A stretch of DNA of 64,000 bases from SAR202 cluster bacterium (lineage in GTDB: Bacteria; Chloroflexota; Dehalococcoidia; Lucifugimonadales; OSU-TB39), in contig VFGY01000021.1 in NCBI GenBank assembly GCA_009392195.1, positions 10,855 to 74,854 of the forward strand. The letters run 5' to 3'. Under the pieces are notes generated by a model. The model saw nothing but the letters and a program-made list of their open reading frames with translations, made no database searches and was not told the DNA's origin. The position numbers were made by a program, and so were the translations under genes. This document shows positions 310 through 61,900 of this stretch, in pieces (positions within the stretch are counted from its first letter, which is position 1; each line of letters opens with the position of its first letter).

Positions 310-1254
310 TTAACTTATAAGATTTGGTACTCCAGTTTCCTGAAGCATTTTCAAAGTCATTTCTCTAAAATCTTCTCTCACATCTCTTGTTGGTGGTCTA
401 TTTCTACTGGAGCCCAATCCTACTAGTTCCATGCAAAGTTTGTCTAAATAACCATCTCCTGATGTATATTTACGCATTTCTGCCCATACTTTATAGAATG
501 GTACAACCACTTTCATAACCTGCTGTTGAGCCTCAACATATGATCCACTTTCAAGTAAGTCCCAAAAATACACAGCCCATTTCGGCCAGTAATTTGCAGT
601 ATGTATCTCTATACCTCGTGCTCCTAGCATATGTGTTGTAACGTAATGTCCCATATTATCAATTACAGATACCGTATCGCCGAAATTAGCCACTACACTT
701 TCCATTCCATAAAATACTCCAGATGGAACTGACCATTTTAGCCCAGCTACATTAGGTAACTTCACTAATTTCTCTATCATACCCATTGAAACATCCGGTG
801 TTGTCCAGTAAGTGTTATAAATAATTAATCCAACGCTAGTTGCCTCAGAAGCAGCTAAAATGAATTCATAAAAATCGTCCTCCGTATGATCAAAATAAAA
901 AGGAGGGGAAACTTGTATGTATTGAGCTCCAACTTCTTCTGCCATTTTTGCCAATTTTATGAGCTCTCGAGTATTTGTGGTTTGTGCTCCAACAGTCACA
1001 GGCACTTTACCGTTTGCTGCATCTACAACTGCTAATGCTACTTCTCGGCGCTCTTCAAAAGAGAGTGTCGAAAAGTCTCCTGCGGCTCCAGCAGCGAGTA
1101 TTATGCCATTACCTTTTTTTACCCCTTGGTCTAGTAAGAACCTGACATGATTTTGTATTGCATGTGTATCAACATCCAAATTTTTGTCAGAAAACATGGT
1201 AGGTATTGTAATATAGCAACCCTTTAAATTTTCTCTTAAAAGTTCTTGAGACAT
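310..1254 (-). CDS. DHDPS/N-acetylneuraminate lyase family (class I aldolase) protein, not canonical DapA
   Basis: 314 aa; IPTMF, GAAGDF..LSFEER (in place of GTTGE), PPFYF, IIYN, and Schiff-base Lys in VAGLKWS. Confidence 0.85.
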   Translation of the reverse strand: MSQELLRENLKGCYITIPTMFSDKNLDVDTHAIQNHVRFLLDQGVKKGNGIILAAGAAGDFSTLSFEERREVALAVVDAANGKVPVTVGAQTTNTRELIKLAKMAEEVGAQYIQVSPPFYFDHTEDDFYEFILAASEATSVGLIIYNTYWTTPDVSMGMIEKLVKLPNVAGLKWSVPSGVFYGMESVVANFGDTVSVIDNMGHYVTTHMLGARGIEIHTANYWPKWAVYFWDLLESGSYVEAQQQVMKVVVPFYKVWAEMRKYTSGDGYLDKLCMELVGLGSSRNRPPTRDVREDFREMTLKMLQETGVPNLIS

Positions 1255-9920: not shown

Positions 9921-10886
9921 ATGTCTGATGAACGGTTTTTGTCCACAGCCCCGATAGGCCAAATTGCTATTGACATACTAAGCCCTAGAGCTCCTGTTGA
10001 AATATCACCTTCTACTTCCCATGAATCGATCGTTAGTCTTATGGATGGGACGCTAGGTTTGATTTGTAGAGCTGAAACGTACATTGATGGACGGATATTA
10101 GATGCAGGTAAAAACTTGAAAGTATTGGGTAGACCTGGAGTAGGTTATGATTCTGTGGACGTAGTAGCTGCTACTGAAAGAGGAATTCCGTTGATTTATG
10201 CACCAGTAGGTGGTTTTGCTGTAGCTGAATGGGCTATGGCTGCTATGTTAGCTTTAGCAAAGAGGATAATAGAGTGCAACCAAATGGTTAAGTCAGATAA
10301 ATGGAGCCAAAGATATTCCGTAGAATTAGATGATATGACTGAAAAAACTTTAGGGATTGTTGGTTTTGGCAGAATTGGACAACATTTAGCTAGATTAGCC
10401 TCACCTTTCGGAATGCGTGTGGTTGCCTTTGACCCTTTTGTTGACAGAAAATTAGCACGGTCACAAAATGTGGAATTATTGGAACTAGAAGCTTTGTTAA
10501 AAATATCTGATTACGTGTCTTTGCATCCCGCACTTAATGATTCATCTAGAGGATTAATTAAAAGTGAGCACATGCAGATAATAAAAAATGGCGCAATGCT
10601 AATAAATGCATCAAGAGGAGGAGTAGTTGAAAATTTGGAAATTCTGGCGGATGCATTAGATGGAGGTATTTTATCAGGAGTAGCTTTAGATGTTTTTCCT
10701 GAAGAACCCCCGCTTCATACGCACAGGATTTTTGAACATCCGATGTGTTTATGTGCACCGCATATGGCAGGATTAAGTAAGCTGGCCATGTTTAGAATAC
10801 TTAAATCAATGGCTAACGATATGTTAGCGGTAGTTGATGGTAATACACCCAAATACTGTGTTAATCCCGAGGTTTTAAATAAATGA
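9921..10886 (+). CDS. D-isomer-specific 2-hydroxyacid dehydrogenase (SerA-like, no ACT domain)
   Basis: RPGVGYD, GIVGFGRIG, SDYVSLH, INASRG, ALDVFPEEP, APHMAG. Confidence 0.9.
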   Translation: MSDERFLSTAPIGQIAIDILSPRAPVEISPSTSHESIVSLMDGTLGLICRAETYIDGRILDAGKNLKVLGRPGVGYDSVDVVAATERGIPLIYAPVGGFAVAEWAMAAMLALAKRIIECNQMVKSDKWSQRYSVELDDMTEKTLGIVGFGRIGQHLARLASPFGMRVVAFDPFVDRKLARSQNVELLELEALLKISDYVSLHPALNDSSRGLIKSEHMQIIKNGAMLINASRGGVVENLEILADALDGGILSGVALDVFPEEPPLHTHRIFEHPMCLCAPHMAGLSKLAMFRILKSMANDMLAVVDGNTPKYCVNPEVLNK

Positions 10887-47160: not shown

Positions 47161-49614
47161 TTGGCAATGTGTGAACAAGGAACTTTCCAATCGACTAAGT
47201 TAAATACATTTAAGAATATACTTGAACAGGAATTAGATTCTGGGTTTGATGATAGCGTAGTTATAGGCGGGGTAGATGCATTTATTGATAGATGGAAGAT
47301 AGAACTTTCATCGGGATTAGGTGAGTTGCCTTGTTATTCAAAGCTTTCAAAACCAAAGCGTAAATTATGGATTTCTAGTATTTTGAAAAAAATTTCGGAA
47401 GCCAACGTTGGGCAACATTTGAACAAAACAAATTCCAAAAGCCTTAACAATAAAGCCAATAAGATTCAAAAAAAATCGACTAAACTGACTGATAGTGTGT
47501 ACCAGATCGAAGGTATGACTAGAAGAAATATTTCAGAATCTGAATTAGCAAAACTAAATATAAATAATATTAACGATTTATTGTATTTTGTTCCTAATCG
47601 CCACAATGACTTTGGGGATATCCGTAAAGTATCAGATTTACAAGATGGACAAGATCAAACTATCATGGCGAATGTTTGGGAAGGAAGTGTGAAAAAGATT
47701 AGGCCAAGGTTATGGTCTATAAAGGTAATTGTTGGTGATGACAGCGGTAATGTTTCATGTAATTGGTTTAGGCATGGATATAAGAAACCATATTTGCTAA
47801 GTGCATTTAAGCCTGGCACTAAATTGGTTATAAGCGGTAAGACAAGTTTGTTTGCTGGAAGAATAACCTTTCAATCTCCTGAATACGAATTGGTTAATGA
47901 ATCGGCTGACTCTTTGGTTCATACAAGTGGGTTGGTGCCTGTATACCCAATAACTGAAGGTATAACGCAGAGACGTATTAGAACTGTTGTGAAAAAGGCA
48001 GTTGATTCTATGGCGGATGAAGTCAATGATCATTTGCCAAATCACTTGAAAAAAGAATTGAAATTTATGAACCTTTCTAGTGCTATAAAAAACATACATT
48101 ACCCAGATTCTATATTGCAGTATAACGAAGCGAGAAGAAGATTGGCTTTCGATGAGTTTTTTGTTCTTCAATTAGCTGTTTTAATGAGGAAATTGTCTTT
48201 AAAGACAGAAAATCATTTTTTAGATCTTAATATAGATTTAAACAAAATAAATGGCTTTATTGATTTGCTTCCCTTCAAACTAACGGATTCACAAAATTTG
48301 GTGATTGAGGAAATTCTCCATGATTTAAATAGTCAGGTAGTAATGAATAGATTGTTGCAAGGAGATGTAGGTAGTGGCAAAACAGTTGTAGCGCTCGTTG
48401 CTATGCTTGCATTAGTTTTTGATGGATATCAAGTAGCATTGATGGCACCAACTGAAATATTGGCGCAACAACATTATGCTACTTTATCGAGATTATTGTC
48501 ATCTGGTCACATTATCGAAAGAGAAGAAAATTATATTGTTTTGAAGTTGCCGGATTTTGACAAAACTATAACGATGGGGATATTGATTGGAAGTATGAAG
48601 CAATCCGCTAAAAAGATTATTGTTGAAAAATTGAATCAAAAAGAAATCAATATAATAGTTGGTACCCATGCTTTAATTCAGGATGATGTCAATATTCCCA
48701 ATATGGGCTTAGCTGTTGTCGATGAACAACATAGATTCGGAGTGGAACAAAGGTCAATTCTTCGAAAGAAAAGTGATAATCCTCACATGTTGGCTATGTC
48801 AGCGACTCCTATCCCTCGGTCTTTGAATTTGACTGTGTATGGAGATTTGGATATATCGATATTGAATGAATTACCACAAGGTAGAAAGGAAATTAAAACT
48901 CGCTTCATAAACGATGAAGACAGGTTTAAAGCATATGAATTTACTAGGCAACAAGTAGAAAAGGGTAGGCAAGCTTTTGTTTTATGCCCGCTCATTGAAG
49001 AATCTGAAGTGTTGCAAACCAAAGCTGCTACTGAAGAGTATGAAAAGCTTGTATCAGACATTTATCCTGAATTCAATGTGGGATTATTGCATGGCAGGAT
49101 GAAGTTAATTGAAAAAGATGAAGTAATGATTCAATTCCAAAATCATGACATTGATATTTTGGTATGTACTCCAGTGATTGAAGTAGGAATTGATATCCCT
49201 AATGCAAGTGTGATGATAATAGATGGAGCGGATCGGTTTGGATTAGCTCAATTGCACCAAATAAGAGGTAGGGTTGGGAGGGGTCAGTTTCAAAGCTATT
49301 GTATTTTAATTGCTGATGCCCCGAGTGAAAATGCTCAATTTAGATTAAAGTTATTAGAAGGTAGTAATGATGGATTTGAACTAGCTGAAGAAGATTTGAA
49401 ATTACGTGGTCCAGGTGATTATCTGGGAACTAGGCAGAGTGGGTTACCAAATTTTAAAGTCGCACAAATTAGTGATTTTGAAATTTTGCATCAGGCACGT
49501 GAAGCAGCGTCAAAACTTCTGATTCGTGATCCTAAATTACAACATAAAGATAATTTTGATTTAAGCAAATTGGTAATAGGATATGAAGAGAGATTGTACT
49601 CTGATATCAACTGA
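47161..49614 (+). CDS. recG: ATP-dependent DNA helicase RecG
   Basis: MNRLLQGDVGSGKT, MAPTEILA.QH, DEQHRFG, SATPIPR, QIRGRVGRG, DGFELAEEDL.LRGPG..LGTRQSG. Confidence 0.98.
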   Translation: MAMCEQGTFQSTKLNTFKNILEQELDSGFDDSVVIGGVDAFIDRWKIELSSGLGELPCYSKLSKPKRKLWISSILKKISEANVGQHLNKTNSKSLNNKANKIQKKSTKLTDSVYQIEGMTRRNISESELAKLNINNINDLLYFVPNRHNDFGDIRKVSDLQDGQDQTIMANVWEGSVKKIRPRLWSIKVIVGDDSGNVSCNWFRHGYKKPYLLSAFKPGTKLVISGKTSLFAGRITFQSPEYELVNESADSLVHTSGLVPVYPITEGITQRRIRTVVKKAVDSMADEVNDHLPNHLKKELKFMNLSSAIKNIHYPDSILQYNEARRRLAFDEFFVLQLAVLMRKLSLKTENHFLDLNIDLNKINGFIDLLPFKLTDSQNLVIEEILHDLNSQVVMNRLLQGDVGSGKTVVALVAMLALVFDGYQVALMAPTEILAQQHYATLSRLLSSGHIIEREENYIVLKLPDFDKTITMGILIGSMKQSAKKIIVEKLNQKEINIIVGTHALIQDDVNIPNMGLAVVDEQHRFGVEQRSILRKKSDNPHMLAMSATPIPRSLNLTVYGDLDISILNELPQGRKEIKTRFINDEDRFKAYEFTRQQVEKGRQAFVLCPLIEESEVLQTKAATEEYEKLVSDIYPEFNVGLLHGRMKLIEKDEVMIQFQNHDIDILVCTPVIEVGIDIPNASVMIIDGADRFGLAQLHQIRGRVGRGQFQSYCILIADAPSENAQFRLKLLEGSNDGFELAEEDLKLRGPGDYLGTRQSGLPNFKVAQISDFEILHQAREAASKLLIRDPKLQHKDNFDLSKLVIGYEERLYSDIN

Positions 49615-49672
49615 AGTTTATCTTTTTCAATCTGCTGTCACGGCTGCTAGCATTACTACTTAATTATCGAAG

Positions 49673-49701
49673 TTGACACTTGTATTTTCCGTATATAAGA
49701 T
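49673..49701 (+). promoter_or_regulatory. Near-consensus sigma70 promoter of the DHDPS-like/MfnB-TusA operon
   Basis: TTGACA (49673-78), 17 bp, TAAGAT (49696-701). Confidence 0.7.
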
Positions 49702-49761
49702 GAATCTGATGGACCTTTAATAAATCTAAAGTAAAACTACCAGGATAAATCGATAAACTAA

Positions 49762-50757
49762 ATGGTTGATTACAAGAAAAATGAATCTAAAGATTGGGCT
49801 AAATCATATTTAAAAGGCCAATGGTCTACTTTAGTAACTCCATTTACCCCCGATGGATCTCTAGACGTTGATGGATTAATATCCAATATAAGTCATATAT
49901 CAGACCTAGGTGTTTCGGGTTTAGGCTGCACTTGGGGGATGGGTGAATTTTGGAGCTTAACACTAGAAGAAAGAATGAAAATTTATGACCTAGTGGCCGA
50001 ACATGCAGGAGATAAACTGCATGTAGCAGCTCATGTAACGCATTCAAGTGTTCAAGATATGTTGAACCTTGCAGAAAAAGCTCAAAATACAGGATTTGAT
50101 TTATTGATTGTTACATCACCATATATTGTAGCTAAAAGTCCAAGCCAAGTGTTTGAGTTTGTCTCAAAGTTAGCTGAAAATACAGATTTGGCTATAATGT
50201 TCTACAATTCTCCACAGTTCGGGATAGTTTTGCAACCTGAATGGTTAAGTAAAGTTTCTGAAATCCAGAATGTTGTTGGCGTTAAGGAGGCTAGTTTCGA
50301 TAGAGAACTTTCAATAAACACCCATTTGTTAATTGGAGATAAGGTAGTAATTAGTACTCCAGATGAATGGATTTTTTTCAAAGGGAAAGAGATGGGTTTT
50401 GAACAGCAAGTAATGTTTGCAAATACATCTGATTGGAGATTCGATACGAAAGAAAATAATTACTATGTGGATTTTGTTAATAATGCAGTGAAAGGTGATT
50501 TGAACGAAGAGTTCTATGAAAAATATATAAAACCGATTAAAGGCGTCTCTGATAAATGGTGGATGAAAACAGTACAAAAAAACAACGGAGTTTTACCTGT
50601 TTCATTATGTAAATATTGGGGAGAACTTATGGGTATGGCAGGTGGTCCACCTAGATTGCCACTTTTTGATTTAAATGATGAAGAAAAAAACCAATTGGAA
50701 ATTGATATATCTAATGCGAGAAAAGAAATTATGATTAATGTTAAGGATAAAGTCTAA
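49762..50757 (+). CDS. DHDPS-family class I aldolase/lyase (non-DapA subfamily)
   Basis: LVTPFTPDGSLD, WGMGEFWSLTLEER, SPY, IMFYN, Schiff-base Lys in GVKEAS, G..GGPPRLPL; N-terminal 'YKK.ESKDWAK' extension. Confidence 0.88.
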   Translation: MVDYKKNESKDWAKSYLKGQWSTLVTPFTPDGSLDVDGLISNISHISDLGVSGLGCTWGMGEFWSLTLEERMKIYDLVAEHAGDKLHVAAHVTHSSVQDMLNLAEKAQNTGFDLLIVTSPYIVAKSPSQVFEFVSKLAENTDLAIMFYNSPQFGIVLQPEWLSKVSEIQNVVGVKEASFDRELSINTHLLIGDKVVISTPDEWIFFKGKEMGFEQQVMFANTSDWRFDTKENNYYVDFVNNAVKGDLNEEFYEKYIKPIKGVSDKWWMKTVQKNNGVLPVSLCKYWGELMGMAGGPPRLPLFDLNDEEKNQLEIDISNARKEIMINVKDKV

Positions 50758-51737
50758 TGTTACTAATGGTTAGTGTTCAAAATATGGAAGAGGCGAAACA
50801 AGCTCTTAAGGGAAATGCAGACATAGTCGATGTCAAAAATCTTCAGGAAGCTTTGGTGGGTTCTGCTCATCCTTGGTTAGTGAAAGAGGTTAGGGATTAT
50901 GTACCCCAAGAAACTCATGCAAGCGTAACTCTAGGAGTTGTACCTAATCAAGTTGGTACCGTTGCAATGGCTGTATATAGTGCTGGATTACTTAATGCGA
51001 CGTCAGTGAAAGTAGGTTTTATGAAAACTGAATACCAAATGGCTGTTGATATTTTATTGGCTAGTAAAGAAGCATTGAATGGTACAGAAACTAAATTGAT
51101 TGGTTCACTTTTTGCCGATAATGAACTTTATGATGGATTAGATCCAAATAAAATGGTAGATTTAGCTAAAGATGGTGGATGCGATGGTTTTTTGATAGAT
51201 ACTCTAACAAAAGATGGAAGGAATTTATTTGACTTTATGTCTGAAGAGGTTTTGACAAATTTTGTTTATCAAGGTAAATCAATGGGAATAAGCACAGCGT
51301 TATCCGGACATCTTCGTCTTGATAATTTAGATGAATTAGCTAGGATTAATCCTGATATAGTGGGTGTTAGAGGAGCTGTTTGTTCAAAAGGAGAGAGAGA
51401 CAATTCTGTTTATTGGGAAGCAGTTGCTAATTTTCGTAAAGAACTCAATTTACGCGAGTCAGGAGAAATAGCCGTAAGAGATTTAGATGATTCTGCTAAC
51501 AGTATAAATGGTGATGAATGGATTGTAATTGATGGTACTGGTAAGAGTTGTGCAAGTATAATTTTAGAACTGTCTGAACAAGTCGAAAGAGATACGCTTT
51601 CATTTGTAGAGGTTGTTATGCCAGATGTTCTTAACACTTATGACGTAATTGTTTGGGCACAAAAGGGTGGCCATAAAGTAATATCGCAACGTAAGGAAAA
51701 TAATGGGTCTGTTCGAATTTTAGTGCAGCCAAGATGA
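50757..51737 (+). CDS. MfnB-like ((5-formylfuran-3-yl)methyl phosphate synthase family) enzyme fused to a C-terminal TusA/SirA-like domain
   Basis: Residues 1-235: LLMVS...EEA..A..G.ADIVDVKN, S.TLG, KVG, FAD, IDT..KDG.NLFDF, PDIVGVRGAVC..G.R. Residues ~255-326: IDGTGKSC..II......VEVV.PD.....DV..WA..GGH.V. Confidence 0.85.
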   Translation: MLLMVSVQNMEEAKQALKGNADIVDVKNLQEALVGSAHPWLVKEVRDYVPQETHASVTLGVVPNQVGTVAMAVYSAGLLNATSVKVGFMKTEYQMAVDILLASKEALNGTETKLIGSLFADNELYDGLDPNKMVDLAKDGGCDGFLIDTLTKDGRNLFDFMSEEVLTNFVYQGKSMGISTALSGHLRLDNLDELARINPDIVGVRGAVCSKGERDNSVYWEAVANFRKELNLRESGEIAVRDLDDSANSINGDEWIVIDGTGKSCASIILELSEQVERDTLSFVEVVMPDVLNTYDVIVWAQKGGHKVISQRKENNGSVRILVQPR

Positions 51738-51793
51738 AAGGTAGATAAGTCCAAATTCATAATAAATAGGTAATTATTAACAGATATATTGTT

Positions 51794-52030
51794 ATGGCTG
51801 AAGTAGCACAAATAATAGGTATTATTAGAGATATAATATTAGTTTGTGTATTGGTATTTGTGCTAATTGTATTGTTACGTTTGAATAGAAGATTATTGTC
51901 TGTGTTTGAATCTTTGGATAAACTAACTGCTAAGCTAAATGATTTATCTGATGGGAAGCAAATGGCGTATAATTTTGGTAAAGTAATTTCTTTTGTTGCT
52001 GGCATTTTTGGTAAACGAAATAAAGATTGA
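51794..52030 (+). CDS. Small membrane protein (DUF948/YoxC-like)
   Basis: One TM segment then a coiled coil; adjacent to a YtxH gene as in ytxG-ytxH pairs. Confidence 0.55.
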   Translation: MAEVAQIIGIIRDIILVCVLVFVLIVLLRLNRRLLSVFESLDKLTAKLNDLSDGKQMAYNFGKVISFVAGIFGKRNKD

Positions 52031-52048
52031 TAGATTAAGGAGGGTATA

Positions 52049-52375
52049 ATGGCTGACAGTGGTGGTGGTTTTATTACGGGATTTTTATTTGGTGGGATAG
52101 TAGGAGCTGCTTTTGGTTTATTGCTTGCGCCTAAGCCAGGTCAAGAAACCAGAAATGAACTTAGAAATCAATCAGATATTATTAGATCTAAAATGGAAGA
52201 TATAGGTACTGCAGCAAGGGATAGACTTGCTCCAGCAGTAGATGAAATTAAAGACAAAATTGGACCGAAAATAGATGAAGTTATTAGTAATCGCAGACAA
52301 TCATCAGGAAGGTCTGAAGATGCTATAGAGTTAGATGACGATTTTGAAGAAGAATTTGGTTTGCCAAAGCCTTAG
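52049..52375 (+). CDS. YtxH-domain protein
   Basis: F..GFLFGG.VGAA.GLLLAPK.G.ETR; AAGGAGG RBS. Confidence 0.9.
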   Translation: MADSGGGFITGFLFGGIVGAAFGLLLAPKPGQETRNELRNQSDIIRSKMEDIGTAARDRLAPAVDEIKDKIGPKIDEVISNRRQSSGRSEDAIELDDDFEEEFGLPKP

Positions 52376-52379
52376 AAGA

Positions 52380-53234
52380 TCAAGTTTTATCTTCATTGAT
52401 TTTAAATCTAGGATAAGAACCAAATAACCTAAACATCGAAGACGATTTTTTAAGAGCAGAAAGCGCTAGTTGAACTTTAGGTTCATCTCTATGGCCTAGT
52501 AAATCTATAAGAAACATGTATCTCCCGAGGGATTCTCCTGTTGGTCGGGATTCGATTTTACTCAAATTTATATCTCTTGAAGCGAATTCTCCTAAAGATT
52601 CATAAAGGATTCCAGGTCGGTCAGATTTTAGCTCAAAGCATATAGACGTTTTATCATCTCCAGTTGATTTACTGTCTTTGTTCGATAGTATGGCAAAACG
52701 AGTAGAGTTGGATTTGTTGTCTTGGATATTTTCACCGATTGTAACCGCATTATTAAGTATTGATGATCTCTTGGTGCCTATTGCTGCACTTTCGTTTTTT
52801 GATGTGTCAAGCATTTGTTTGACTGCCAAAGCAGTACTCATAGTTGCCGTGATTTTTGCATTTGGTAAGTTCTCTGAAATAAATGTTTTACATTGTGCAA
52901 TAGCTTGTGGATGTGAATATATATACTTGATGTCATTAAATGCTACTTGAGCTTTCGTAATCAAATAATGATTTATTGGTATTATCAACTCGTATTTGAT
53001 TTTAATATTTTTATGAAATATTAGAACGTCCAATGTTTCGTTTACCGACCCAGCAAGACTATTCTCTATTGGAGCCATACATTCTTCAGCTTCCCCTGTT
53101 ACTATTGAATTTACAGCGTCTCTTATTGACGGGAAAGGTATCCTGATAGCAGATGAATTGTAAGCAATACATGCTTGCTCTGTATGTGTTCCTTCTGGAC
53201 CTAAGTACGCCAGAGTTTTAGACTTGGGTTTCAT
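52380..53234 (-). CDS. pheA: Prephenate dehydratase
   Basis: AYLGPEGT, PIENS..GSV, SHPQA.AQC, N.TRF, ACT domain with INLSKIESRP. Confidence 0.96.
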   Translation of the reverse strand: MKPKSKTLAYLGPEGTHTEQACIAYNSSAIRIPFPSIRDAVNSIVTGEAEECMAPIENSLAGSVNETLDVLIFHKNIKIKYELIIPINHYLITKAQVAFNDIKYIYSHPQAIAQCKTFISENLPNAKITATMSTALAVKQMLDTSKNESAAIGTKRSSILNNAVTIGENIQDNKSNSTRFAILSNKDSKSTGDDKTSICFELKSDRPGILYESLGEFASRDINLSKIESRPTGESLGRYMFLIDLLGHRDEPKVQLALSALKKSSSMFRLFGSYPRFKINEDKT

Positions 53235-57187: not shown

Positions 57188-58351
57188 TTGTCTAATTTTA
57201 AACCATTGAATCAAATAATTGAAAAAATCGTAAATAAGATAAATGAAGATGCAGTTAAAATAAACGGTGTATTTGCTGGATCTGGATCAAGTTTTGCACA
57301 TTGGTTTTTAACAAAGGCAGGTTCATCTAAAACCCTGCTTCAGTTGGATTTTCCATATTCATATAGTGTTATTGATGAAATGCTTGGGTGTACACCCAAT
57401 GGGTACGTTAATGAGGTGGTTGCAAATGAATTTGCCAACATTGCGTATAAAAGAGCTAACAAGCTGTTAGCTCCAGAAGAAAAAATAATAGGAGTTGGGT
57501 GTACTTCAGCGCTTACATCAGAAAAACCGAAAAAAGGTGAGCACAGGGTGTATGTTTCTATAAGAAGCAGAAACGAGATGATTAATGGATATCTTAAACT
57601 TAATAAAGGTATTAGGACTCGAATTGAGGAAGAGGATTTAGTAAGCAGGTTCATATTGGATCAAATAAATCGGTTTTGTTTTAGCAGCGAAGACCAAACT
57701 TTACTTAAAGATTTAACTTCTGGAGATAAGGTGGAAAGGAAAAAAAATAAATTTTATGGTGCAGTTGAGCAGTTTTTTGAAACAGATAAACCGTTTGTGG
57801 CAATAAACAAAGATGGACATTTATTAGATTTTTCAGATTCTTTCACATATATAATTCCCGGATCATTTAATCCTTTGCATTCAGGCCATAAGCAATTGGC
57901 GGAATTTATAAAGAGAATGAAAAAATCGAGAGTAGATTTCGAGATTTCTATTTTCAATGTAGATAAAGACAATATGAATAAAGAAGAGGTGATTAATCGG
58001 ATATCTCAATTTATGGGAGTGGGTACAATAATAATATCCAAGTCTAAAACTTTTGCCGAAAAATCTATTCATTTCAAGGGATGCTCATTTGTTGTAGGAT
58101 GGGATACAGCAGTTAGGATACTTGATACTAAATATTACGATAATAATTTTGAATCAATGTTGACAGCGTTGGATATTATTAAGGAAAATCATTGCAGGTT
58201 TTTAGTTGTGGGAAGATTGGACGAATTTGGTGCTTTTAGAAATGCTAACGATATTGATGTGCCTAGTGGTTATCAAGATATGTTTACAATGATTGATGAA
58301 AAAAGGTTCAGAAATGATATTTCATCTACGGAAATTAGATCGCAAAATTGA
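57188..58351 (+). CDS. CinA-C/PncC-like domain fused to a cytidylyltransferase-like (NadD-type) nucleotidyltransferase
   Basis: N-half 'GSGS....W....GSSKTLL...PY', 'GVGCTSAL...PKKGEHR'; C-half PGSFNPLHSGH, FEIS..NVDK, VVG.DT..R, ISSTEIR. Confidence 0.75.
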   Translation: MSNFKPLNQIIEKIVNKINEDAVKINGVFAGSGSSFAHWFLTKAGSSKTLLQLDFPYSYSVIDEMLGCTPNGYVNEVVANEFANIAYKRANKLLAPEEKIIGVGCTSALTSEKPKKGEHRVYVSIRSRNEMINGYLKLNKGIRTRIEEEDLVSRFILDQINRFCFSSEDQTLLKDLTSGDKVERKKNKFYGAVEQFFETDKPFVAINKDGHLLDFSDSFTYIIPGSFNPLHSGHKQLAEFIKRMKKSRVDFEISIFNVDKDNMNKEEVINRISQFMGVGTIIISKSKTFAEKSIHFKGCSFVVGWDTAVRILDTKYYDNNFESMLTALDIIKENHCRFLVVGRLDEFGAFRNANDIDVPSGYQDMFTMIDEKRFRNDISSTEIRSQN

Positions 58352-58364
58352 TTTGGAGTAGGAG

Positions 58365-59816
58365 ATGTTTAAGGATTTATCAGATTTCATAAATTTTCTT
58401 GAAGAGAAAAATGAATTAGTTCGAATCTCGACTCCGGTAAGTTCAGAATTTGAGATTACTGAAATTGCTGATCGGACCATAAAAAGTAAGGGTCCAGCTT
58501 TGCTTTTTGAAAATGTTGATGGTCAAAAAATACCTGTTTTAATCAATTTGTTCGGTAGTGAAGCTAGAATGGCTTGGGCATTAGGTATAGATAGTCTTAA
58601 TGATTTATCTGATATTTCAAACAAATTAATAAATTTACCCAAGAACCCTCCAAAGTCATTAATGGAAAAACTGAAAATTTTGAACGAATTAATCAATCTT
58701 AGTAAAAGTTCACCTAAGATTTTGAAAAATGCTCCTTGTCAAGATATTGTCTTAAAAGGTGATGAAATTAATTTGTTCGAGTTACCAATCTTGAAATGCT
58801 GGCCTGGTGACGCAGGTAAATTTATAACGTTGCCCTTGGTCATTACTCGAAATTTGAATACTGGTCAAAGAAATGTTGGTACCTATCGTATGCAGGTATA
58901 TGATGAAAGAACAACCGGTATGCATTGGCAGACACATAAGGTTGGGACTTCCCATTACCGTAAAGCTAAAGATTTTGGGAACTCTAAGCTGGAGGTTGCA
59001 GTTGCAATTGGAGGTGATCCTGTAACTATTTGGTCTGGTTCTTTACCTTTACCACCTGACATGGATGAACTTTTAGTGGCGGGAATTTTAAAAGGAAGTT
59101 CTGTTGAACTTGTTAAATGTAAAACAGTAGATTTGGAGGTACCTGCTAACTCTGAATTCGTTTTAGAAGGATATATTGATGTTGGAGAAGAAAGGATTGA
59201 AGGCCCATTTGGAGACCATACAGGTTTTTATTCTGAGCCAGCAAAATATCCTGTATTTCACTTAACTGCATTAACACGTAAGACCAATCCGATTTATCCT
59301 GCAGTCGTAGTAGGAAAGCCACCCTCAGAAGATTATTTTATGGGCAAAGCTAGTTCCAAGTTAATGTTGCCCGCTTTGCAGTTAACGTTACCTGAAATAA
59401 TTGATGTTAACATGCCTGCCGAGGGTTTGTTTCATAACTTTGTGATTGTATCTATGAAAAAAGAATACCCGGGACATGTGAGAAAAGTGATGTATGGGTT
59501 ATGGGGTTTAGGATTAATGTCTTTAACGAAAATAATTATTGTTGTTGACCATTATGTAGACGTAGAAGATATTTCTGAAGTTGCATGGAGAATTGGTACT
59601 AATGTTGACCCTGGTAGAGATTTAGTGATTGTTAAAGGTCCAACTGATGATTTGGATCATGCTTCGGAAGTTCCAAAATATGGTGGAAAAATGGGAATAG
59701 ATGCAACTTCAAAAGGTGAATTGGATGGGTTCAATAGGGATTGGCCAGATGAGATCATGATGACCGATGAGATAAAAAAATTAGTTGATAAGAAATGGAC
59801 TAATTACAGGATTTGA
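58365..59816 (+). CDS. UbiD-family prFMN decarboxylase (menaquinone futalosine-pathway type)
   Basis: EITEIADR, GPALLFEN, LP..KCWP.D.G.FIT.P, NVG.YRMQ, MHWQ.HK, EGPFGDHTGFY, D.LDHAS. Confidence 0.93.
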   Translation: MFKDLSDFINFLEEKNELVRISTPVSSEFEITEIADRTIKSKGPALLFENVDGQKIPVLINLFGSEARMAWALGIDSLNDLSDISNKLINLPKNPPKSLMEKLKILNELINLSKSSPKILKNAPCQDIVLKGDEINLFELPILKCWPGDAGKFITLPLVITRNLNTGQRNVGTYRMQVYDERTTGMHWQTHKVGTSHYRKAKDFGNSKLEVAVAIGGDPVTIWSGSLPLPPDMDELLVAGILKGSSVELVKCKTVDLEVPANSEFVLEGYIDVGEERIEGPFGDHTGFYSEPAKYPVFHLTALTRKTNPIYPAVVVGKPPSEDYFMGKASSKLMLPALQLTLPEIIDVNMPAEGLFHNFVIVSMKKEYPGHVRKVMYGLWGLGLMSLTKIIIVVDHYVDVEDISEVAWRIGTNVDPGRDLVIVKGPTDDLDHASEVPKYGGKMGIDATSKGELDGFNRDWPDEIMMTDEIKKLVDKKWTNYRI

Positions 59817-59845: not shown

Positions 59846-60694
59846 ATGTTAATATTTTTAAGATTATTAAAATTAAATGAAACTTTGTTTGCGCTCCCAT
59901 TTGCCTATTGCGGGCTGCTTTTGGCGTATAAATCTGCCGAAGAATTCAGTTTAGTCAAAATAATTTGGATAACCCTAGCTATGGTGGGTGCGAGAACATT
60001 TGGAATGCTAATGAATAGAGTTGTTGATAAGCACATCGACTCGATGAATCCAAGGACTAAGGACAGAGATTTGCCTTCAGGAAGAGTTAATGTGCTTAGT
60101 ATATTGTTGATAGGATTTCTTGCCTTGGTGATATTTCTATATTCCGCTTTTATGTTGAATGACATGGCTTTTTATTTATCCCCTATAGTAGCTGCATATA
60201 TGTTGATTTATTCGTACACAAAACGATTTACTTGGCTTAGTAGTTTTTTCTTGGGAGGGGTTTTAGCAATCGCTCCTAGCGGAGCCTGGATAGGAGTAAA
60301 TGGATCTTTAGGGGTTGAACCAATCATTTTATCACTTGGGGTTGCTTTGTGGGCAACTTCGTTTGATATTCTGTATCATATTCAAGATGTGGATTTTTAT
60401 TCGGTAAACAAATTACACTCATTTTCGTCTAGGTTTGGAATCGCAACATCAGTAAAAGCAACAAAGTTATTGGATTTAATATCAGTACTAATACTGATTT
60501 TGTTAGGCGCTGTCGCAGATTTAAGTTTGGTTTATTATATTGGTCCGATTATTGTAGGATGTATTTTGTTTTATAAACATAGGTATATCAGTTATCATGG
60601 TGTTATTGTTGGAAGTCAGAAATTTTTCCGATTGAATCCTATTGTGTCTTTCTCAGTTTTCTTTTCTATATTGGGAAGTTTAATAGTGACTTGA
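59846..60694 (+). CDS. UbiA-family polyprenyltransferase (MqnP-like)
   Basis: TLFALPFAY, MVGART..M..NR.VD..ID..NPRT..R.LPSG, YSYTKRFTW, FDILY..QD. Confidence 0.9.
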   Translation: MLIFLRLLKLNETLFALPFAYCGLLLAYKSAEEFSLVKIIWITLAMVGARTFGMLMNRVVDKHIDSMNPRTKDRDLPSGRVNVLSILLIGFLALVIFLYSAFMLNDMAFYLSPIVAAYMLIYSYTKRFTWLSSFFLGGVLAIAPSGAWIGVNGSLGVEPIILSLGVALWATSFDILYHIQDVDFYSVNKLHSFSSRFGIATSVKATKLLDLISVLILILLGAVADLSLVYYIGPIIVGCILFYKHRYISYHGVIVGSQKFFRLNPIVSFSVFFSILGSLIVT

Positions 60695-60709
60695 ATGTTA
60701 GGAGGCTAT

Positions 60710-61315
60710 TTGAATAACGAAACAACCATTGAAAAGCCATTAGTAGTTGGAATATCGGGAGCAAGCGGTTCTATAATAGCGTCTAAGCTAGTAGATGCTT
60801 TAATAGAACGGGATATTCAAGTTGCACTAATCGTTTCCCATGCCTCGAGGATTGTTTGGAAGCAAGAAATGGATGAATCTTTTGGAGAGTTTTTAGAAAG
60901 GAAGATTCAAACTGGTAAAGTGAAAAATTATCATATCGGCGATATCCAAGCGCCAATGGCAAGTGGGACTTATCCGATAAGAGGGATGGTTATTGTGCCA
61001 TGTTCGATGGCCACAGTTGCTGCTTTAGCTACAGGATTAGCGGATAATTTACTGCGTAGAACTGCTGATGTTTGCTTTAAGGAAAGGCGGCCAATAACGA
61101 TAGTTCCTAGAGAAACTCCACTTAGCCAATTACATTTAGAAAACCTGTCAAAGCTTGCTAACATGGGTGCTAATATAATGCCACCGCAACCAGCTTTCTA
61201 CCTGAAGCCAAACAGTTTGGATGATGTTGTGGAGTTTTTAGTTCAAAGACTGTTAATGACCTGTGGCATAACCGATGAATTGCCTCAAGATATAAGATAC
61301 AATGGGCCAAATTAG
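60710..61315 (+). CDS. ubiX: Flavin prenyltransferase
   Basis: VGISGASG, ASGT, VPCSM, DNLL.R.ADV..KERR, PRETPL, PAFY..P; TTG 60710 after GGAGG. Confidence 0.93.
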   Translation: MNNETTIEKPLVVGISGASGSIIASKLVDALIERDIQVALIVSHASRIVWKQEMDESFGEFLERKIQTGKVKNYHIGDIQAPMASGTYPIRGMVIVPCSMATVAALATGLADNLLRRTADVCFKERRPITIVPRETPLSQLHLENLSKLANMGANIMPPQPAFYLKPNSLDDVVEFLVQRLLMTCGITDELPQDIRYNGPN

Positions 61316-61339: not shown

Positions 61340-61900
61340 ATGATACCTGCATTCGACGTGATTAAAGCATTAAATATTAAGCGTAAGGATGAAATTGTCG
61401 TTGGAACTATGACACCTAATCGTTACTGGGAACTTGTATCAGATAATCCCAAAAAGGATTTACCGGTTTTTGGTGCGATGGGTAAAGCTTCATCATTAGG
61501 ATTAGGGGTAGCATTATCGAAGCCTAGCGAAAAGGTCTGGGTTTTAGATGGCGACGGTTCTATTTTAATGAATTTAGGAAGTTTAATCACAATTGCTGGT
61601 CAAAAACCTGAAAATTTTTTCCATTTTGTTTTTCAAGATGGGATTTATTTTACCACTGGAGGACAGCCTGTACCTGGGGGAGGCAACGTAGACCTTGCGG
61701 GCATAGCTTTGAAATCGGGCTATGCACATGTGTTTACTTTTGATGATTTGGAGCATTTCATAAATGAATTAGATGAGATTAATGAATTAAATGGGCCAGT
61801 TTTTGTCTGTCTTAAGGTGCAACATAGTAAAGATGCACCGGAGATGTATATTGGCAGTACCAAAAATGCAATCAATCGTTTTATGAAAGAGAACAATTGA
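61340..61900 (+). CDS. ThDP-binding beta subunit, sulfopyruvate/phosphonopyruvate decarboxylase (ComE-like)
   Basis: GAMG.ASSLGLG.AL..P...VWVLDGDGS.LMNLGSL.TIA, 'TTGGQP'; 186 aa, PP domain only. Confidence 0.8.
   Translation: MIPAFDVIKALNIKRKDEIVVGTMTPNRYWELVSDNPKKDLPVFGAMGKASSLGLGVALSKPSEKVWVLDGDGSILMNLGSLITIAGQKPENFFHFVFQDGIYFTTGGQPVPGGGNVDLAGIALKSGYAHVFTFDDLEHFINELDEINELNGPVFVCLKVQHSKDAPEMYIGSTKNAINRFMKENN

Follow-up and report, generated by a model that had tools for sequence, protein, structure and literature searches.

A conserved aldolase and MfnB-type enzyme pair in SAR202-type Dehalococcoidia and its tentative link to the late futalosine genes

Introduction

What does a bacterium of the SAR202 cluster make, or degrade, with an aldolase-like protein whose gene is coupled to that of an MfnB-type barrel with a TusA-fold tail? 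This question is raised by two genes, here referred to as gene 1 (49762-50757, + strand, 331 aa) and gene 2 (50757-51737, + strand, 326 aa), in contig VFGY01000021.1 of GenBank assembly GCA_009392195.1. The coordinates are those of the window, i.e., the whole stretch of 64,000 nucleotides (positions 10,855 to 74,854 of the contig, forward strand) that was analysed. A first-pass annotation, made from the letters and their open reading frames (ORFs), had regarded the pair as a self-contained operon of two Schiff-base aldolases that would form a dedicated two-step pathway, and it named conservation of the gene neighbourhood as a check. This study finds that the two genes, which are expressed and either coupled or fused, constitute a conserved enzyme module in which known folds occur in a new combination. 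Its distribution and gene order suggest, tentatively, that the module stands at the place of the early futalosine genes in the synthesis of a respiratory quinone.

To our knowledge, the menaquinone ring is reached by only two established routes, namely, I) the classical Men pathway and II) the futalosine pathway. The futalosine pathway starts from chorismate. Literature searches found neither a description of the module nor a paper connecting MfnB with menaquinone, and nothing on MfnB together with dihydrodipicolinate synthase (DHDPS) or on SAR202 together with methanofuran. Futalosine together with SAR202 or Dehalococcoidia did not occur among the matches listed, and searches on DUF556/UPF0264/PF04476 returned unrelated papers only.

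Results

The two genes form one conserved unit

Adjacency was assessed in 15 loci from 13 genomes of a sample of the class and in the best 80 of 484 loci of a species-level genome collection; fusion and spacing were assessed in 92 loci. The aldolase gene lies directly upstream of gene 2, on the same strand, in all 15 loci of the class sample and, in the collection, at 78 of the 80 loci. Such a pairing is far beyond chance, and within these related loci the neighbourhood conservation for which the first-pass annotation had asked is found. The two exceptions are a locus at a contig end (L086) and a locus with no DHDPS-type gene within 21 kb (L073). In the latter (DCAW01000032.1, 10001-10969), a fragment of an HpcH/HpaI-type aldolase is located upstream on the opposite strand.

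In 11 of the 92 loci, the two genes are fused in frame and encode a protein of about 700 aa in the order aldolase, barrel, and TusA domain; single ORFs of 715 aa contain the Pfam domains DHDPS, 4HFCP_synth, and TusA. The fusion linkers span about 20 to 75 residues, with the exception of one locus (L063), where the two tblastn matches overlap and share a frame. Carriers of family f37 generally have the fused form (9 of 10), whereas family f31 is mixed. The distance from stop to ATG in the 81 unfused loci is -4 in 19, -1 in 2, and 0-11 nt in 33, with a maximum of 165 nt, and the conserved neighbours of these loci are housekeeping genes (TrkA/H, PheA, Usp, FakA/DegV, RecG, and YtxH). In the window, the TAA of gene 1 and the ATG of gene 2 have one base in common (TAATG, 50755-50759, + strand), as the first-pass annotation had read it, which is the arrangement of translationally coupled genes. 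A complex prediction for the two proteins gave a score of 0.00, from which nothing follows about binding in either direction.

The window's own genome, G000, contains the pair a second time (67% and 59% identical) on contig C29 (34.8-63.5 kb; locus L014), with the same YtxH, PheA, and MqnL neighbours as the window pair. This C29 stretch of about 30 kb is collinear with 49-76.8 kb of C21, the contig of the window, at 40-80% protein identity. The copy is probably due to pieces of two related genomes in the bin (9.2% contamination) and not to a duplication.

The pair accompanies MqnL and excludes the early quinone genes

The distribution of the pair was compared with that of quinone genes across a sample of 121 genomes from the order to which the window belongs, in which MqnL was called at E <= 1e-100 and MqnE over its cut-off. 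MqnL was found in 89 of the 121 genomes, i.e., in 71 of the 75 genomes with the pair and in 18 of the 46 without it. The MqnA/MqnD family (PF02621) is present in 20 genomes (4/75 with the pair, 16/46 without), MqnE in 15 (1/75 and 14/46), and MenD in 13 (0/75 and 13/46); none of the MenD holders in this sample has MqnL. Another 17 genomes, all of them without the pair (17/46), have none of the pair, PF02621, and MenD. Viewed from the side of MqnL, the 89 holders consist of 71 with the pair, 14 with PF02621 and no pair, and 4 with neither. Three of the four PF02621-bearing pair-holders belong to one family (f157), and their matches are weak (101-132 bits) and come without MqnE. Fisher tests gave p = 4e-12 for the pair against Mqn or MenD, p = 2e-11 for the pair against MqnL, and p = 1e-9 for the pair against PF02621 within the MqnL holders, values that overstate the case because related genomes are not independent. 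The pair, Mqn, and MenD states are interleaved among the families of this one order.

The wider class sample of 201 genomes contains the pair in 13, PF02621 in 14 (10 of them with two strong matches), MenD in 46, and UbiD in 57. Its pair-holders have neither PF02621 (0/13) nor MenD (0/13), and 12 of the 13 have UbiD, the one without it being 57% complete. Five pair-holders were inspected in detail; none of the five has PF02621, MqnC or MenD over the cut-off, or a chorismate lyase of either family. The radical S-adenosylmethionine matches in G000 are CofG and CofH. These FO synthase genes (G000:C23:70510-72839, L192) adjoin an F420-type luciferase-like oxidoreductase, because of which this genome probably makes F420.

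Late futalosine genes near the pair

The window contains a cluster with MqnL, 6.6 kb downstream of the pair and likewise on the + strand. This cluster is headed by a 387-aa gene (57188-58348) with a cytidylyltransferase-like C-terminal half and no NCBIfam match, followed by an MqnL-type UbiD-family decarboxylase (58365-59813; TIGR03701, 613.9 bits vs. a cut-off of 495.9), an MqnP-like UbiA-family prenyltransferase (59846-60691; over the ubiA_other cut-off and under the MqnP exception cut-offs), and an MqnM-like UbiX-family flavin prenyltransferase (60695-61312; profile match). In 22 of 88 loci, UbiD occurs within 10 kb downstream of the pair with the same orientation. Among the 71 genomes with the pair and MqnL, the two lie within 20 kb on one contig in about 34, as read manually from the coordinates. 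A gene of the 387-aa type, whose N-terminal 220 residues match no family, likewise occurs downstream of the pair, in the same orientation, in 22 of 88 loci, and because of this position it may belong to the same pathway. A 185-aa protein that binds thiamine pyrophosphate is encoded directly after UbiX (61340-61897, + strand); it is most like the beta subunit of sulfopyruvate/phosphonopyruvate decarboxylase, with scores under the cut-offs.

Gene order is tighter in two genomes of different families (G578 and G589), where ubiD, ubiA, ubiX, and the fused gene follow each other co-directionally with tight spacing. In a relative from the window's order (G192), the genes after MqnP-UbiX-MqnL are MqnE, a PF02621 gene, MqnC, and a second PF02621 gene, so that the early futalosine genes occupy the place beside MqnP-UbiX-MqnL that the module occupies in G578 and G589. 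Because of this place behind ubiD-ubiA-ubiX in two genomes, together with the distribution described above, the pair is tied to the late futalosine-type menaquinone genes. The description of the pair as self-contained is therefore to be divided: it is apt transcriptionally at this locus, and it does not extend to function, in which the pair is not isolated.

Gene 1 encodes a DHDPS-family protein with altered motifs

The gene 1 protein, identified from the ORF list and Pfam as a class I aldolase-like member of the DHDPS family, matches PF00701 with an E value of 1.7e-32 and 112.8 bits (gathering cut-off 22.1) and scores 85.1 bits on the NCBIfam dapA equivalog TIGR00674, the cut-off of which is 206.15. 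Its N-terminal 200 residues can be aligned to many solved DapA and NAL structures, and residues 200-283 diverge from the DHDPS family yet are highly conserved among the relatives of gene 1. As in the DapA/NAL family, the Schiff-base lysine and the tyrosine of YN.P are present; among the relatives, Lys175 (50284-50286) is invariant and Tyr148 nearly so. The difference from DapA lies in the GTTGE motif, the second tyrosine of PYY, and the substrate arginine after YN.P that characterise that enzyme. Gene 1 has WGMGE in place of GTTGE, and its alignment with 2yxg gives PYI in place of PYY and no arginine at the substrate arginine position. WGMGE and the sequence FANTSDWRFD of the C-terminal half, to which the earlier annotation had drawn attention as unusual, are both nearly invariant in 98-117 relatives. 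The search for relatives gave 834 matches, of which the named ones are labelled SAR202, Dehalococcoidia or Chloroflexota, and the mean column identity of 67% in the alignment of relatives indicates strong constraint.

Judged by its sequence, the gene 1 protein is a member of the DHDPS/NAL superfamily but, as the first-pass annotation had concluded, not DapA, since a true dapA is located elsewhere in the genome (5/5 genomes checked; the G000 copy at C20:4217-5065 scores 310.6). Membership in the NahE hydratase-aldolases was considered and rejected as weak: NahE has the same length (331 aa), a G.W(T/S)...TP.TPD start in common, and a hydrophobic third residue in G..GE, and the identity is 22% over 188 residues of the N-terminal part only (E 2e-8). 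A search of the ESM Atlas returned DHDPS-family clusters only, and the nearest annotated relatives are plasmid-encoded "DHDPS family proteins" of Rhodobacterales and Rhizobiales with 27-28% identity. Two of these relatives, on a Phaeobacter plasmid (L101) and a Shinella plasmid (L102), each adjoin an aspartate-dehydrogenase-like gene, the latter being also near kynureninase and 3-hydroxyanthranilate 3,4-dioxygenase; they constitute a separate, uncharacterised subfamily. The DHDPS family is greatly expanded in G000, which has 28 matches to the DapA-family model, one of them over the dapA cut-off. A further paralogue of this family is located in the window at 313-1254 (- strand).

Gene 2 joins an MfnB-type barrel to a TusA-fold tail

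Gene 2, likewise identified from the ORF list and Pfam, encodes an MfnB-type (PF04476) triosephosphate isomerase (TIM) barrel (residues 1-231, 50757-51449; Lys27 codon 50835-50837) and a TusA-fold C-terminal domain (residues 255-324, 51519-51728; Cys265 codon 51549-51551), both on the + strand. Residues 3-226 match 4HFCP_synth (PF04476) with an E value of 5.5e-57 and 193.6 bits (cut-off 22.4), and the best NCBIfam match is the 4-HFC-P synthase model, with scores under the equivalog cut-offs (196.4 vs. 341 and 186.1 vs. 304). A phmmer comparison of the barrel with MJ1099 gave E 1e-45. MJ1099 is also the best fold match of its AlphaFold model (predicted local distance difference test score 86.7), with a template modelling score of 0.90, a root-mean-square deviation of about 2 Å, and 35% identity; the E value of this fold match is 1e-21 vs. 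2.5e-8 for the next TIM barrel. The barrel retains D25, K27, K85, D148, and K152, the counterparts of D25, K27, K85, D151, and K155 in MJ1099, in which D25, K85, and D151 count among the essential residues. The Schiff-base lysine that had been ascribed to both products of the pair is thus kept, as Lys175 in the aldolase and Lys27 in the barrel. For MfnB itself, one study gives Lys27 as the Schiff-base residue and two lysines and two aspartates as essential (PMC6604932), and another names Lys155 (PMC11365854).

With MfnB (MJ1099; PDB 4rc1 and 4u9p), gene 2 has the fold and Lys27 in common, whereas MfnB has neither the 95-residue TusA-fold tail nor the DHDPS-type partner. Moreover, 10 of the 31 positions common to at least 85% of 108 canonical MfnB members are altered in gene 2. 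The substitutions P29L, G32A, D61V, and Y119F concern positions shared by 85-98% of these members; Asp61, which is present in 94%, is Val in gene 2. The 983 matches to gene 2 carry, where named, the labels SAR202, Dehalococcoidia or Chloroflexota, and here, too, the mean column identity (77% in the alignment of relatives) indicates strong constraint.

The tail (residues 257-324) matches the TusA profile PF01206 from position 2 to 69 of 70 with 19.5 bits, below the cut-off of 28.6; among the relatives of gene 2, a TusA match with E <= 0.01 was obtained in 43 of 103 (best 6.3e-6). Its predicted structure has strands at 255-259, 283-288, 307-313, and 319-324 and helices at 265-278 and 291-304, in the order strand-helix-strand-helix-strand-strand, and Cys265, which is invariant among the relatives, is located at the start of helix 1. 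According to this model, the tail is a TusA fold with a conserved cysteine at the start of helix 1. TusA itself has the same topology, a two-layer alpha/beta fold, and the same cysteine position. The match to the whole profile and the place of the cysteine are common to the tail and TusA/SirA, whereas the Pro-x-Pro that follows the cysteine in TusA is Ala-Ser-Ile in the tail, the tail scores under the Pfam cut-off, and TusA is free-standing and not fused to an enzyme.

The combination of barrel and tail was sought among 1.84 billion cluster representatives. In the best 150 of the 3197 matches, three near-full-length representatives (330, 454, and 699 aa) were found; the next matches are ordinary MfnB relatives of 230-260 aa that cover residues 1 to about 230 only, with at most 42% identity. 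A search with the tail alone gave 27 proteins, mostly fragments of the gene 2 family, and the ESM Atlas search gave nothing for the tail. Looking up the clusters to which the nearest short MfnB relatives belong yielded almost no names.

In the five genomes checked, gene 2 is the sole PF04476 gene. Ftr was found in none of five pair-holders and FwdA over its cut-off in none of the five, with positive controls in methanogens; because of this, gene 2 is not a methanofuran MfnB. As a negative control, metagenome loci of the canonical KNPxEG-type MfnB were inspected for a DHDPS or TusA-like neighbour, which was found in none of 80; one metagenome MfnB locus that was examined closely (L133) is a canonical MfnB. 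The module was also considered, and rejected, as a replacement for pyridoxal phosphate or thiazole synthesis, PdxS being present in 5/5 genomes and ThiG in 4/5.

Locus layout and transcription

As the first-pass annotation had placed it, the pair is located between a recG-like gene (47161-49614) and a YtxH gene (52049-52375), both assigned by Pfam and the former also in the ORF list. A 78-aa ORF (51794-52030, + strand) lies between gene 2 and the YtxH gene; it contains a hydrophobic stretch and has no family match, and an RNA-library contig starts inside it at 51860. The gap of 147 nt between the stop of the recG-like gene (49614) and the ATG at 49762 holds a sigma-70-like promoter candidate on the + strand (49673-49701), with TTGACA at 49673-49678, a 17-nt spacer, and TAAGAT at 49696-49701. 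This site, read directly from the sequence as before, agrees at 10 of 12 positions and is the best-scoring one within 49000-52600, although promoter-like sites are not enriched in this region (11 vs. 14.2 in shuffles, standard deviation 3.6). In L022, the single close relative that was aligned, the promoter block is kept and the flanking sequence diverges.

Evidence of transcription comes from contigs of marine RNA libraries of one study that are at least 99% alike to the locus, and such contigs cannot prove a start, an end or a single transcript. They span both genes, and one of 1666 nt (49999-51664) crosses the gene junction. One contig starts at 49708, and contig ends do not mark transcript starts; likewise, the lack of contigs from this study on 48800-49688 and 51721-47 marks neither a transcript start nor an end. 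What holds of the dedicated two-step pathway proposed earlier is therefore a coupled two-enzyme unit, given the adjacency in 15/15 and 78/80 loci, the fusion in 11/92, and the RNA contig that bridges the junction.

Discussion

A possible replacement of the early futalosine steps

Because the module is found together with the late genes in lineages without MqnA/E/C/D and MenD, we tentatively propose that it acts upstream of MqnP, MqnL, and MqnM in place of the early futalosine steps, and that it provides the carboxylated ring compound, i.e., the quinone head group, which these enzymes would prenylate and decarboxylate; we favour this reading, although the case for and against it is close to balanced. 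The early futalosine enzymes MqnA/E/C/D and the classical enzymes MenF/D/H/C/E/B have no sequence or fold relation to the module. The early futalosine genes have the same phyletic partner as the module, MqnL, and are mutually exclusive with it, so that the module would be a functional stand-in for them. The two would also differ in their starting material, as the futalosine route begins at chorismate, whereas the families to which the module belongs act on triose phosphate and pyruvate.

From the chemistry of these families, a sequence of three steps can be sketched. The barrel would, via Lys27, condense triose phosphates into a formyl-bearing ring, as in MfnB; the aldolase would, via Lys175, add pyruvate to that aldehyde; and the Cys265 domain would deliver sulfur or hold an intermediate. 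It is possible, and a more tentative claim than the replacement itself, that the SAR202-type Dehalococcoidia abundant in the ocean assemble the head group of their respiratory quinone in this way, by a third, undescribed route, which would start from triose phosphate and pyruvate, perhaps with the addition of sulfur, and not from chorismate, and would feed into MqnP/MqnL/MqnM. The quinone might then be a new furan- or thiophene-derived structure and not an ordinary menaquinone.

Several observations weigh against this proposal. Two trioses and pyruvate amount to nine carbons, which does not match the eleven that 1,4-dihydroxy-6-naphthoate is taken to have, and a derivation on paper from two trioses and pyruvate to the 11-carbon naphthoate found no route. 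We know of no counterpart of the TusA-like cysteine in menaquinone synthesis. In six genomes of the fused type, the neighbours of the module all differ and no quinone gene is adjacent, and the linkage of pair and MqnL over 5-15 kb may, within a single order, reflect a gene order that was inherited and not a functional tie. As to the distribution, MqnL was assigned by hidden Markov model score alone, MenD was the sole proxy for the classical pathway, and the Fisher values are inflated by relatedness as stated above. One bin of 77% completeness (G625) holds the pair, MqnE, and PF02621 together. MqnL is lacking in four of the 75 pair-holders, of which two are 68-71% complete and two (G662 and G675) about 94% complete. 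Conversely, four genomes, three of them of family f137 (G574, G630, and G665) and G617, have MqnL with neither the pair nor PF02621; they are also without MenD and may hold a further head-group source or a diverged module. In the class sample, many UbiD holders, e.g., 10 of 10 in family f9, have none of the pair, PF02621, and MenD, and therefore these genomes have either other sources or other uses for UbiD.

Other explanations

The same observations bear on another explanation, namely, that the module makes a different metabolite or cofactor, e.g., of a furan or thiophene type from triose phosphates, pyruvate, and sulfur, and that common lineage and lifestyle, not a common pathway, account for its fit with quinone genes. 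This is possible, if somewhat unlikely. It would agree with the retained catalytic residues and fold of MfnB, with the invariant cysteine of the TusA fold, with the lack of a quinone gene beside the module in the six fused-type genomes, and with the many UbiD holders of the class that lack the pair and the known early genes. It leaves unexplained why the pair and the early futalosine or Men genes exclude each other within families and orders, with both tracking MqnL, and why ubiD-ubiA-ubiX is followed by the fused gene in two families; moreover, no consumer of a cofactor was found among the conserved neighbours.

It is distinctly unlikely that the module performs a tailoring or accessory step on the quinone, such as a ring modification or one that introduces sulfur, instead of supplying the head group. 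The origin of the head group would then have no explanation in genomes without PF02621, MqnE/C, MenD, and both chorismate lyase families, and co-occurrence with the early futalosine genes would be predicted, which is seen only in G625. The presence of MqnL in 71 of 75 pair-holders and the position within the cluster are in keeping with such a step, and the TusA-fold cysteine hints at sulfur transfer.

A catabolic pair is quite improbable. Here, the aldolase would cleave a 2-keto-3-deoxy (phospho)sugar acid to pyruvate and glyceraldehyde 3-phosphate, and the barrel would process a triose or furanic compound. The 28 DHDPS-family matches in G000 form a pattern typical of broad catabolism, and the plasmid relatives of the aldolase stand in catabolic-looking clusters (transporters, kynureninase, 3-hydroxyanthranilate dioxygenase). 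Against these stand the occurrence of one copy only in each genome, 60-77% identical across an order, the fusion with a barrel of a biosynthetic type, the lack of a transporter or regulator kept alongside, and the established fact that glyceraldehyde 3-phosphate requires no dedicated supply. Scarcely credible is a role of gene 2, as a bacterial MfnB, in making a one-carbon cofactor of the methanofuran or methanopterin type, for which the PF04476 match (E 5.5e-57) and the 4-HFC-P synthase model as best NCBIfam match would speak, and against which stand the equivalog score of 196.4 under the cut-off of 341, the lack of Ftr and of FwdA over its cut-off in the five genomes with positive methanogen controls, the absence of a DHDPS or TusA-like neighbour at all 80 canonical MfnB loci, and the Val at the position of Asp61.

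Conclusion

In the sample of 121 genomes, most of the 75 pair-holders have retained the late futalosine enzymes, or close relatives of them, and have the module in place of the known early genes. Strains of SAR202 are now in culture (PMC10444878), and since the module consists of just two genes or one fused gene, its proposed role in supplying the quinone head group is directly testable. Should the link to quinones fail, a strongly conserved, expressed, and uncharacterised enzyme system remains. If the link is true, it would give the MfnB family a new function outside the synthesis of methanogen cofactors and would be the first role for a TusA-fold domain fused to an aldolase. For a group of bacteria that is among the most abundant in the dark ocean, it would also close a gap in respiratory metabolism.

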